Shown in pieces: positions 1 to 1,677 of a DNA stretch of 5,665 nucleotides (position 1 is the stretch's first letter; every line of letters starts with the position of its first letter). Source of the DNA: a virus (Duplodnaviria > Heunggongvirae > Uroviricota > Caudoviricetes). The stretch lies in IMG/VR virus record IMGVR_UViG_2534682307_000021. The stretch is one strand, 5' to 3'. The notes beneath the pieces are model-generated. The model saw nothing but the letters and a program-made list of their open reading frames with translations. It had not been told where the DNA came from and did no database searches. The translations under genes were made by a program, and so were the position numbers.

Positions 1-58
1 AGTCGATCACCCTGGACACCGCCCCCCGTCTCATTCGTAGAAAATTTTGCTTTTCAAA

Positions 59-80
59 AAAGTTACACGAAAAGTTACAC
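59..80 (+). promoter_or_regulatory. Two direct 10-bp iterons AAAGTTACAC (59-68, 71-80) directly upstream of the terS-like gene; candidate operator or TerS/pac recognition element
   Basis: Exact 10-bp direct repeat with 12-bp start-to-start spacing, 13 nt upstream of the GAGG RBS (93-96) and ATG 103. The same motif recurs inside the downstream gene at the same 12-bp phase. Confidence 0.4.
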
Positions 81-102
81 CCCCTCAAAACGAGGTTTTT
101 GC

Positions 103-591
103 ATGGCATTAACGACCAAAAAAAAGCGGTTTGCTGATGCGTTATCAAGGGGCGCAAATCCCACGGAAGCCGCTATACATGCGGGATACAGCGAAAAGAC
201 CGCAAGGGTTAAAGGCTGGCAGCTATCCAACGATCCTGAGGTGAAAAAGTATCTTAAGGCTGTAACTTCTGATGTAACTTTTCAGGTTACAAAACCGAAA
301 AAAGTTACAAAGAAAGTTACCGAAAAAGTTACACCGGAACGGGCATCAATTAACACCATTGAGATGATGGATAACGGCCTACCCGACCCCATCAAAGCAA
401 TGGGCAGGATACTGATTGACAACATGGACACAGATCCAAAACTGGCTTTAGATGCCGCGTTTAAGCTGGCCCAGTTCACCCACCGCAAGATCGGCAGCAT
501 TGGGAAAAAAGAGGTTAAAAAACTCAATGCCGCTAGTGTCTACTCAAATCGGTTCCCCATCCCTAAGCCACCAACAGACTTAAAACACTGA
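103..591 (+). CDS. Terminase small subunit-like protein (Terminase_2 / phage P27-type N-terminal DNA-binding domain), 162 aa
   Basis: ORF with GAGG RBS 6 nt upstream. N-terminus KKKRFADALSRGANPTEAAIHAGYSEKTARVKGWQLSNDPEVKKYLK fits the conserved TerS HTH pattern (KQxRF..EY...N.T.AAI.AGYS.KTA....LL.N..V..YI) as I recall it. Size is typical for TerS. Not verified by a search. Confidence 0.7.
   Translation: MALTTKKKRFADALSRGANPTEAAIHAGYSEKTARVKGWQLSNDPEVKKYLKAVTSDVTFQVTKPKKVTKKVTEKVTPERASINTIEMMDNGLPDPIKAMGRILIDNMDTDPKLALDAAFKLAQFTHRKIGSIGKKEVKKLNAASVYSNRFPIPKPPTDLKH
262..334 (+). repeat. Array of six GTTAC/GTAAC cores at 12-bp phase inside the terS-like gene (two inverted, four direct; three full AAAGTTAC[A/C] iterons at 301, 313, 325)
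   Basis: Cores at 262, 274 (GTAAC), 286, 304, 316, 328 (GTTAC); spacing 12,12,18,12,12. Encodes a (x-V-T-x)n stretch AVTSDVTFQVTKPKKVTKKVTEKVTPE. Last iteron AAAGTTACACC (325-335) matches the upstream copy at 71-81. Confidence 0.55.
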
Positions 592-602
592 GGTAGCGAA
601 CT

Positions 603-764
603 ATGAGCGAATACATCACAGACCCTATTGATGTACTCACGGAAATCATGAACGACAAGCAGCAGTCGACCGAAATACGGTTACAGGCCGCCGCTGTTCT
701 GATGCCATATTTTCACGAAACACTAAACCCGTGCTTCCAGGAGGAGGAAGAAGATGATCTGTAA
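603..764 (+). CDS. Hypothetical small acidic protein, 53 aa (MSEYITDPIDVLTEIMNDKQQSTEIRLQAAAVLMPYFHETLNPCFQEEEEDDL); not in the supplied ORF track
   Basis: ATG 603 is 9 nt after GAGG (590-593). The ORF is open to TAA 762-764 and overlaps the next gene start (754) by 11 nt, suggesting translational coupling in a terS-X-capsid operon. No family recognised. Confidence 0.4.
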   Translation: MSEYITDPIDVLTEIMNDKQQSTEIRLQAAAVLMPYFHETLNPCFQEEEEDDL

Positions 765-1677
765 AAACATGAAAGGCGTGTCAGCAGTTCGCGCCGCCAG
801 CGTGCTGGCATCGTGTAAATTTAGCCATGCTGACGCTATAGAGATGACGAAAAGAAATGATCCGGCAGTATCGAAATTTCTTGAAAAATCCATCGTCAAC
901 AGAATGACTACGGATAACATGCCGTCGCTGGTGGCAGAGCCGATAGTAAGAGAGCTTGGCGAGTATATTTTTTCGCAGTCTGTACCAGGCAAGCTAATCA
1001 GCAGCGCGCTTAATCTTCCGTTTGGCGCAAAATTGCATTCAATATCAGGCAAGGGTAGTAAATGGCTTAAAGAAGCCGAAGAAATCCCTGTCAAAGAGGG
1101 AGAAGTAAACGAAAGTGCGCTAAAATTGTGCAAACTTGGCGCTATTGTGATGCTGAATAACGAGCTAATCAAATTTAGCACCCCTGGTACAAATTCAGCG
1201 ATCAGAGACTTGATCACATCGGAATCGGTGAAAGAAATAGATAAAAAATTTCTTTCCAGTGATCAGGAGGTGGCTGGCGTATCCCCTGAGGGCGTGCTTA
1301 ATGGTGCTGATGAGGCCGAAAACTTCATAGAGATTTTCAAAAAGCACATAGCGAACGGTAACACGCTTTCCACGTCGTCGCTAATATTGCCCGTAGAAAA
1401 CGCCTTACAGCTTACTGATGCTGAGTTCTGGCAGATAGAGCTTTTGAGAATACCGGTAATTGTGAGCGAACAGGCGGATCGCATGATGCTGATAGACGCT
1501 CAAAAGCTGATTATTAACGTTGAAGCCACGGTTATAACCCCAACTGATGAGGCGGTAATAAAAACCGAATCAGGGGCGGTTAGCCTTTTCCAGAATGACG
1601 CTACAGCGTTCAGGGCAATCACCTATTGCGGATGGCAAAAACTCGATAAGGCCGTCACCGTTCTGGCGAAAAGCTGA
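754..1677 (+). CDS. HK97-fold major capsid protein-like (Phage_capsid family), 307 aa, no N-terminal delta/scaffold domain
   Basis: Strong RBS AGGAGGAGG (739-747) 6 nt before ATG 754; in-frame alternative ATG at 769. Middle segment WLKEAEEIPVKEGEVNESALKLCKLGAIVMLNNELIKF and C-terminus GAVSLFQNDATAFRAITYCGWQKLDKAVTVL follow the conserved layout of HK97-family capsid proteins (compare recalled 80alpha-type YWVGEGQKIE...AFKLGVILPVTKEF and PVNLFEQDMVALRATMHVAL...AFAKL). Recognition from memory, not a search. Confidence 0.6.
   Translation: MICKNMKGVSAVRAASVLASCKFSHADAIEMTKRNDPAVSKFLEKSIVNRMTTDNMPSLVAEPIVRELGEYIFSQSVPGKLISSALNLPFGAKLHSISGKGSKWLKEAEEIPVKEGEVNESALKLCKLGAIVMLNNELIKFSTPGTNSAIRDLITSESVKEIDKKFLSSDQEVAGVSPEGVLNGADEAENFIEIFKKHIANGNTLSTSSLILPVENALQLTDAEFWQIELLRIPVIVSEQADRMMLIDAQKLIINVEATVITPTDEAVIKTESGAVSLFQNDATAFRAITYCGWQKLDKAVTVLAKS

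Follow-up and report, generated by a model that had tools for sequence, protein, structure and literature searches.

How does a phage satellite mark its DNA for packaging when it carries a cos site and encodes TerS but neither TerL nor an HNH nuclease, and must therefore borrow both? The question is raised by a stretch of 5,665 nucleotides (IMG/VR virus record IMGVR_UViG_2534682307_000021, Caudoviricetes), referred to here at its full length as the window, in which a short motif, AAAGTTACA, occurs in several copies both around and inside terS, the gene for the small terminase subunit. The window corresponds to the right end of an 8.5-kb element resembling a phage-inducible chromosomal island (PICI), which lies between yljB/cspD and clpS in Escherichia coli O157:H7. 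We consider it likely, from comparative sequence analysis, that the repeats are TerS recognition elements of the satellite, placed beside a cos site of the helper type and forming a bipartite, cosB-like array that would give the island a packaging specificity of its own. A sequence-only reading had already proposed a packaging-recognition site that might redirect a helper, and the proposal has gained ground, as the motif adjoins a cos core and changes with the TerS clade, which fits a satellite-specific address.

Repeats around and inside terS

The gene and the copies of the motif are listed below; clade A denotes the group of TerS relatives to which the window belongs.

103 to 591, plus strand: terS, small terminase subunit of 162 amino acids (PF03592, PHROG 641, AlphaFold2 model)
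58 to 68, plus strand: candidate proximal recognition element 1, AAAAGTTACAC, non-coding; every clade-A relative has a copy at -30 to -50 relative to the ATG
70 to 80, plus strand: candidate proximal recognition element 2, AAAAGTTACAC, non-coding, 12 bp from element 1
261 to 270, minus strand: distal element, inverted copy 1, TGTAACTTCT (reverse complement AGAAGTTACA), codons A-V-T-S
273 to 282, minus strand: distal element, inverted copy 2, TGTAACTTTT (reverse complement AAAAGTTACA), codons D-V-T-F
283 to 292, plus strand: degenerate direct copy, CAGGTTACAA, codons Q-V-T-K
300 to 309, plus strand: distal element, direct copy 1, AAAAGTTACA, codons K-K-V-T
312 to 321, plus strand: distal element, direct copy 2, GAAAGTTACC, one mismatch
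324 to 334, plus strand: distal element, direct copy 3, AAAAGTTACAC, the same as the upstream non-coding copies

The window satellite holds seven to eight copies of the element, whose extended unit is AAAAGTTACA(C). The sequence-only reading had located AAAGTTACAC twice upstream (59-68 and 71-80) and six GTTAC/GTAAC cores within the gene, the first two inverted; both statements are exact, the inverted form GTAAC starting at 262 and 274 and GTTAC at 286, 304, 316 and 328. Its further statement that all copies keep a 12-bp phase is too broad, because that spacing holds only within three sub-arrays (62/74; 262/274/286; 304/316/328), which are separated by 188 bp (74 to 262) and 18 bp (286 to 304). 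Two of the in-gene cores are degenerate in their flanks, namely those at 286 (GGTTACA) and 316 (AGTTACC).

The motif is truly enriched. GTTAC/GTAAC occurs 25 times in the window against 8.5 +/- 2.6 in dinucleotide shuffles, and eight of these cores fall within 277 bp where about 0.6 are expected from the average of the 34.6-kb locus (Poisson P ~2e-7), although the five-base core alone overstates this enrichment, since the dipeptide V-T encodes GTWAC a priori in 50% of cases. Of the seven exact copies of the longer heptamer AGTTACA in the 34.6-kb locus, six lie within window positions 61-333. TRF reports two 12-bp arrays (58-80 and 298-333); within the gene, the upstream pair has its match in 310-335 (85% identity) and its complement in 258-282 (84%).

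Selection on the DNA

Comparison with relatives indicates that the motif is kept as DNA. We collected 14 clade-A loci (11 distinct sequences) from E. coli, Hafnia, Salmonella and metagenomes, which encode TerS proteins 53-100% identical to that of the window and include both satellites and true prophages; the relatives at 53-65% came from exact-protein look-ups. All 14 loci carry at least one copy of AAAAGTTACAC at -30 to -50 from the start codon, as well as direct in-gene copies at +182 to +224, and in 10 of the 14 inverted copies are also present within the gene, at +155 to +170. Their loss is confined to four E. coli loci (L084, L257, L258 and L260), with a TerS at about 62% identity to that of the window, in which the direct copies are kept with identical codons; three of these (L084, L258 and L260) are satellite variants with five to six upstream copies, one of them inverted, and the fourth (L257) has a single upstream copy. 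The earlier argument that the upstream non-coding copies speak for selection at the DNA level is borne out, in that they are kept in all homologues with upstream sequence.

The codons tell the same story. In a codon alignment of seven deep lineages, pairs of sequences with the same amino acid share the same codon in 205 of 237 cases (86%) in the repeat region and in 878 of 1737 cases (51%) elsewhere. Valine is encoded by GTT in 16/16 direct copies and by GTA in 11/11 inverted ones, whereas the four valine codons are mixed elsewhere, and the inverted copies use only ACT for threonine. The third base of the codon before the inverted GTA-ACT is always T, although this codon encodes A, D, S, R, G or L, so that TGTAACT, the complement of AGTTACA, is kept. 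Freely varying synonymous codons among homologues had been named beforehand as the outcome that would speak against a DNA-level site; at 53-65% protein identity they do not vary freely. Slippage can explain the variation in copy number, but on these comparisons it accounts neither for the non-coding copies nor for the complementary codon sets nor for the conservation between lineages.

The surroundings of terS vary among these relatives. An HNH gene stands directly upstream of cos, terS and the major capsid protein (MCP) gene in L082-L084, E. coli loci with TerS identity of about 62%, where the intergenic region is expanded and holds five to six copies of AAAAGTTACAC, including a palindrome, AAAAGTTACACGATGTAACTTTT; these three loci lack both inverted in-gene copies. 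The upstream array is similarly expanded in L258 and L260, and in L259 and L260 the gene upstream of terS is of the AlpA family and not HNH. L257 (5001-5474) is a cos-terS remnant with one upstream copy and without the MCP gene, directly upstream of a type I restriction-modification operon (hsdM, hsdS, hsdR). The Salmonella locus L088 (1532-6785) has a clade-A terS and a 288-residue open reading frame (ORF), followed by a gap of about 1.7 kb without a called gene at the place expected for terL and then by a protease-MCP fusion and portal; here terL may have been disrupted, or a satellite may have inserted into a prophage. A TerS-alignment scan of one genome per species found only distant relatives and none of clade A (best segments at most 56% identical, mostly in the N-terminal DNA-binding domain; best 33% over residues 3-131), and scans of IMG/VR and metagenomes returned near-identical satellites, clade B and clade C, and no new intermediates.

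A cos core next to the repeats

Immediately to the left of the proximal pair lies a block shared by all TerS clades.

11 to 37, plus strand: conserved cos core, CCTGGACACCGCCCCCCGTCTCATTCG, a block present by alignment in all TerS clades between HNH (or the last upstream gene) and terS
20 to 29, plus strand: decamer CGCCCCCCGT, presumed cosN nicking site, counterpart of the Lys8385Vzw 3' end CGCCCCCCCT
38 to 57, plus strand: A/T-rich spacer between cos core and first repeat, TAGAAAATTTTGCTTTTCAA, with a AGAAAAAAT-like tract common to the clades

Virion sequencing of Lys8385Vzw, a phage encoding Shiga toxin 1 (Stx1), mapped 10-nucleotide 3' cohesive ends with the sequence CGCCCCCCCT (PMC7946995), from which the window decamer CGCCCCCCGT differs by one mismatch. 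The deposited Lys8385Vzw record ends in ...GGACACCGCCCCCCCT and starts with CTCACGCAGAG... (CTCACGC). Between HNH and terS the block common to all clades reads (G-run)...CGATCGC.CTGGACACCGC.CCCC.TCTCACGCA.AGAAAAAAT, and its cos consensus, CTGGACACCGC(C/G)CCCC(C/G)TCTCA, contains the mapped Lys8385Vzw end. The first repeat begins 29 bp after the decamer, and so about 30 bp to the right of the presumptive nick, on the terS side, the adjacency expected of a cosB, and all clades keep the same offset between the cos core and the repeats. An equivalent position to the right of the cos cut is taken by lambda cosB and by the HK97 TerS site (PMC6739421, PMC11331095), HK97 TerS binding 15 bp downstream of its own cut (PMC11331095).

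Among relatives the gene order is that of an HK97-like, HNH-dependent cos module. HNH, cos, terS and terL follow one another in the phage relatives L085-87, L090 and L092, with which the satellite variant L082 was also counted, and true prophages of Hafnia alvei continue from HNH, terS and terL into a protease/MCP fusion and portal. The nearest deposited phages, with 46% TerS identity and the same gene order, are long-tailed Stx1a-, Stx2c- and some Stx2a-converting phages, a group that also includes BP-4795, 2851, YYZ-2008 and PPompW prophages. Judged by its sequence, packaging is of the cos type, involves an HNH-type module and, going by the related Stx1 phage, probably leaves 3' cohesive ends; it is not of the pac type. 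The earlier suggestion of a pac site must be given up here, given the defined cohesive cos ends of the relatives and the conserved cos core in the window.

The cos region (window 1-37 and L001 15975-16000) continues to the left of the window, where a run of 10 G (L001 15975-15986) is found about 45 bp upstream of the decamer in all clades; its position and conservation suggest a cosQ-like or left-arm element.

The motif changes with TerS

In clades B and C the same cos core is accompanied by GTTAAC elements at the same offset. Clade B, comprising the Stx-type phages, has AGTTAACATGTTAACT followed by three more copies of (A)TGTTAAC, and in the 51-kb genome of the Stx1 phage Lys8385Vzw 5 of the 17 GTTAAC sequences lie within 153 bp after the virion end. 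Clade C (Citrobacter-type prophages, about 30% TerS identity) has GTGTTAACGTGTTAAC across the start codon, and 9 of its 11 loci carry (T/A)GTTAACA inside the variable linker, about 217 bp into the gene; one locus (L097) has GTTAACCC twice upstream and once in the linker. The bipartite layout, with a proximal pair and linker-codon elements about 200 bp away, thus recurs with another motif. No GTTAAC was found near the cos site of the satellite, and no AGTTACA cluster in the Stx1 phage.

The switch is accompanied by changes in the protein. At residue 39, in the recognition helix of the helix-turn-helix (HTH) domain, the GTTACA clade has W, C or Y where the GTTAAC clades have S, and at residue 6 it has K or R where they have Q. 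The locus shows features expected of a cosB-type site: a short element in several copies, conserved within clade A and replaced by GTTAAC along with changes in the recognition helix. A more specific scenario, which we put forward tentatively and hold somewhat below even odds, is that an orthogonal packaging address, by which satellites would share the cos cutting of the helper and exclude its TerS, arose from a one-base change of the core (palindromic GTTAAC to GTTAC-A) combined with the change of S39 to W/C/Y. Half of that address would be overprinted on terS, so that selection on the DNA site would dictate the (K)VT repeat of the linker, and TerS bound to its own gene might feed back on expression.

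The TerS protein

TerS matches PF03592 (Terminase_2) over residues 3-57 with 42.4 bits (cut-off 26.1), and PHROG 641, 'terminase small subunit', over its full length (E = 1.5e-43). Matches of the family profile to solved structures are weak, comprising Pam5 TerS (21di, E = 0.0011) and SF6 G1P (3zqp and 2cmp, E = 0.05-0.06), the latter values lying above the usual 0.001 cut-off. In the AlphaFold2 monomer model (predicted template modelling score, pTM, 0.33) the HTH domain (1-56) is confident; it is followed by a linker (57-84), whose predicted local distance difference test score (pLDDT) is below 50, and by a helical C-terminal domain (96-146); the linker is predicted to be disordered and the C-terminal domain to mediate oligomerization. 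It is this linker segment that the VT repeats encode, and its sequence is unrelated in clades B and C.

The opening ~12 codons of terS (103-140), which cover the A-run ACCAAAAAAAAG, likewise show raised synonymous identity (0.71-0.88, compared with about 0.5 elsewhere); this could reflect a constraint on translation initiation or another DNA element.

Proposed mechanism

The elements would play the role of the R sites of lambda cosB. In this layout the cos core is followed by the proximal AAAAGTTACAC pair about 30 bp to its right and, about 190 bp farther on, by the distal group of two inverted and three to four direct copies; the distal array is written into the codons of the disordered TerS linker, which would explain the xVTx peptide repeat of the protein. 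Upon induction by a helper phage the island would replicate, and TerS would bind the elements through its N-terminal HTH domains. By homology TerS is expected to form a ring oligomer (8-10 subunits in G1P-like TerS, with peripheral DNA-binding domains), in which neighbouring HTH motifs would lie about one turn of DNA apart, as reported for SF6-type TerS rings (PMC4737164), and the 12-bp spacing within the sub-arrays would be compatible with such neighbours. The TerS-DNA complex would recruit the helper TerL and HNH nuclease, the nick would fall at about 20-29, and packaging would proceed rightwards. Each TerS would address its own DNA, GTTACA versus GTTAAC, and the satellite would compete for the shared motor. 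TerS seems the most economical reader, because the element with the private motif encodes TerS but neither TerL nor HNH.

Several points weigh against this reading, besides the overstated enrichment of the five-base core. The DNA-binding domain of SF6 TerS, the closest solved relative, has been reported to bind pac DNA without sequence specificity (PMC4737164), and HK97 TerS reads DNA through its channel and not by HTH wrapping (PMC11331095); given these precedents, HTH readout of a 10-bp element is an assumption. The codon test over alignment columns gave a Mann-Whitney P of 2.4e-5, a value that is approximate as the sequences are related. The variants P0003 and P0004 lack one or two in-gene units and, as some loci also lack the inverted copies, individual copies are dispensable. 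At their C-termini the satellite TerS (...PPTDLKH) and Stx-type TerS (...LVVNNDNEGNG) have different tails. Finally, tblastn searches of deposited phage genomes with the TerS of the window and of the Hafnia prophage found no clade-A phage and no virion of the GTTACA clade with mapped ends.

Other explanations of the repeats

The alternative that survives best, though we consider it improbable, is that the repeats are operators for transcription or translation, bound by TerS itself in autoregulation or by a late regulator of satellite or helper, a function that may coexist with packaging. The upstream pair lies 22-45 bp before the ATG, where a bound protein could block RNA polymerase or ribosomes. 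A scan of positions 1-800, however, found no sigma-70-like promoter, which also removes the ground for calling this stretch a promoter region, as the sequence-only reading had done. A terminator scan gave a single minus-strand hit (96-79), which is within shuffle expectation. In true prophages the element sits between HNH and terS within the late operon, where no promoter is needed, and neither the fixed offset from the cos core nor the concentration of the repeats of a helper-type phage in the 153 bp next to its virion end is expected of an operator.

Somewhat less probable still is a reader that is not TerS; the HNH nuclease of the helper, TerL or a bending protein of the host could take this role, with the elements forming part of the cleavage site. 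HNH-dependent cos phages do need three proteins at cos (PMC11331095; bioRxiv 2022.09.08.507074). Such a reader would be less parsimonious than TerS. The satellite has a motif different from that of co-resident phages while encoding TerS and not TerL or HNH, the motif type tracks the changes in the TerS recognition helix, and what all clades have in common is the cos core, the expected target of a shared TerL and HNH.

Could the repeat instead be a feature of the protein only, a flexible (K)VT-rich linker produced by 12-bp slippage with the DNA motif as a by-product? A tandem 12-bp unit corresponds to four amino acids, its copy number varies between close relatives, and V-T yields GTWAC half the time by chance. 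Yet the non-coding upstream copies match the in-gene ones over 10-11 nucleotides in every relative, the synonymous sites are frozen, the inverted copies use complementary codons (GTA-ACT) after a codon that always ends in T, and the linker, a predicted disordered segment, has no sequence relationship to that of the sister clades. A purely peptide-level repeat is ruled out by the non-coding copies, the codon conservation and the complementary codon sets, and we regard this explanation as very unlikely.

An equally small chance is given to a constraint on RNA: a hairpin in the mRNA between the inverted and the direct in-gene copies, or their pairing with the 5' untranslated region (UTR), would control translation or stability. 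Inverted repeats (I1-I5) are present, and the minimum-free-energy fold of 40-345 pairs about 262-282 with 300-320 (z = -2.0). This z-score is modest, pairing between 5' UTR and gene is absent from both the minimum-free-energy and the centroid folds, the four E. coli loci without inverted copies keep their direct copies with identical codons, and pairing leaves the tandem direct copies and the non-coding upstream direct copies unexplained. RNA folding was rejected as the main explanation, the 40-345 folds offering only a local hairpin and no 5' UTR-gene pairing.

Replication-origin iterons, the least credible of all, would suit direct repeats on a primase-encoding element, but the array lies about 1.1 kb downstream of the primase gene with three small genes and the cos site between, no further copies occur near the primase, and the same array stands at cos-terS in complete prophages, so that position and presence in prophages rule iterons out and the earlier term 'iteron' is a misnomer, with no link of the repeats to replication.

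Candidate helpers

Five genomes hold the satellite together with three to four Stx-type HNH-TerS-TerL modules, and these Stx-type prophages have GTTAAC. TerL is 65% identical between clade-A and clade-B phages. The C-terminal domain of the satellite TerS is as close to that of Stx-type TerS (60-66%) as to that of clade-A phage TerS (51-59%), while its DNA-binding domain is closer to clade A. On these similarities, Stx-type modules are plausible helpers for the TerS-directed packaging proposed here.

Relation to known systems

A close analogy is lambda cosB, with its R3, R2 and R1 sites for gpNu1 (TerS), which likewise consists of short repeats for a TerS HTH to the right of the cos nick, reaching towards terS in both orientations. 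It differs in its TerS family (Nu1 vs PF03592 here) and in its ends, which are 5' ends of 12 nucleotides, compared with 3' ends of 10 nucleotides here, the latter taken from a related phage; an HNH-type module is involved here, and the distal elements lie within the terS coding sequence. No match to the integration host factor consensus was seen by eye between the proximal and distal arrays. SaPIbov5 is reportedly (Carpena 2016) a cos-type Staphylococcus aureus pathogenicity island (SaPI) with a Ccm capsid homologue. SaPIbov5 and the capsid-forming PICIs (cf-PICIs) are, as the window element probably is, satellites of HNH-cos phages with a homologue of the helper MCP, but SaPIbov5 lacks terS and cf-PICIs carry a full capsid and terminase set, whereas the window element has only terS, a 53-residue ORF and an MCP-like gene.

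Other satellites redirect packaging in different ways. EcCICFT073-type PICIs with Rpp (Fillol-Salom 2019, PMC6739421) likewise combine a helper-like cosN with an altered cosB and have packaging redirected to the island; these islands lack terS, and their Rpp heterodimerizes with TerS of the lambda type, whereas the window island has a full PF03592 TerS and would exploit a different (HNH-cos) module. Redirection of the Rpp type was accordingly not found in the island, and phage interference is not evident from its sequence. As far as the account of Ubeda 2007 and Chen 2015 in bioRxiv 2022.09.08.507074 goes, SaPIs of the TerS-S type resemble the window satellite in having their own TerS homologue and, on the reading proposed here, a satellite-specific site and use of the helper TerL, and differ from this cos satellite in headful (pac) packaging and in Ppi.

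Two phage systems share parts of the layout. The pac site of SPP1/SF6, with pacL in the promoter region and pacR in gene 1, is read by G1P of the same Pfam family (PF03592) and is bipartite, some 200 bp separating the repeat boxes upstream of the gene from those within it (PMC4737164). The SPP1 cut (pacC) falls between both parts and packaging is headful, whereas in the satellite the cut would fall to the left of both. HK97 (Chechik 2024, PMC11331095) is an HNH-dependent cos phage with 10-nucleotide 3' overhangs and a TerS site a few tens of bp past the cut, but that site is a single 15-bp sequence read as DNA threads the ring, by a TerS of another family and without a repeat array.

No description of a cosB or TerS site for HNH-cos phages of the BP-4795 or Stx type was found in the searchable literature. 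If true, the proposal would give the DNA address of a TerS family for which no published recognition site was found, one used by long-tailed Stx1a-, Stx2c- and some Stx2a-converting phages of enterohaemorrhagic E. coli; the module is present in about 1,250 of 5,426 complete E. coli genomes. It would also add a third route by which Gram-negative satellites reach a cos motor, through their own TerS and own cosB at a helper-type cosN, to the known routes of Rpp and of full capsid-forming islands, and would provide a clean natural example of an embedded DNA site shaping a protein sequence. The predictions would be directly testable by motif swaps, synonymous recoding and W39S, and the finding would bear on island mobilization, and possibly on interference with Stx phages, in O157:H7.

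The island and its surroundings

Over its first 2,650 bases the window matches E. coli chromosomes of serotypes O157:H7 and O103:H2 with 100% identity. The island part of the window spans 103-1677, with clpS and clpA next, and the island as a whole encodes an integrase, an HTH regulator (alpA-like), an Icd-like protein, DUF4222, a primase, three small ORFs, TerS, the 53-residue ORF and the MCP-like protein. It has the marks of a Gram-negative PICI (L001 9270-17677), namely int, an alpA-type regulator and a primase in one orientation, packaging genes at the 3' end, and no tail or lysis genes; the size range applied was 8-20 kb, and the IMG/VR matches include contigs of 8.4-8.5 kb. The terS/cos region was found in 220 of 5,426 complete E. 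coli genomes (at least 95% identity over at least 80% of its length). Two genes follow terS.

603-764, plus strand: ORF of 53 amino acids, directly after terS
754-1677, plus strand: MCP-like gene, 307 amino acids (PF05065, PHROG 617)

The 53-residue ORF matches positions 89-125 of the PHROG 641 (TerS) profile (E = 3.5e-7), and BLASTP of it against the window TerS gave no match. ORFs of 49-51 residues, located by position only, stand at the same place after terS in L253, L255 (where terL is next), L256 and L089. The MCP-like protein belongs to the major capsid family of HK97 fold, lacks the protease half, and shares 24% identity with residues 291-625, the MCP half, of the Stx-type 645-residue protease-MCP fusion; it could act as a Ccm-like factor for capsid size or interference. 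In Gram-negative PICIs capsid genes are reportedly common.

Between the end of the island and clpS lies a non-coding stretch of about 1 kb (~1680-2650) with repeats of period 10 (three units, 2426-2455) and period 12 (two units, 2459-2482), several of whose spurious ORFs share YGDPH/YGYPH-like peptides; this suggests dispersed units of the repetitive extragenic palindromic or bacterial interspersed mosaic type (REP/BIME-like) or debris of an attachment (att) site. No tRNA gene was found within the window. A second integrase-bounded island follows clpA beyond the window (L001 21803-34650) and bears remnants of IS1 and ISL3 as well as genes encoding a KAP NTPase, YfjI and an inovirus Gp2-like protein.

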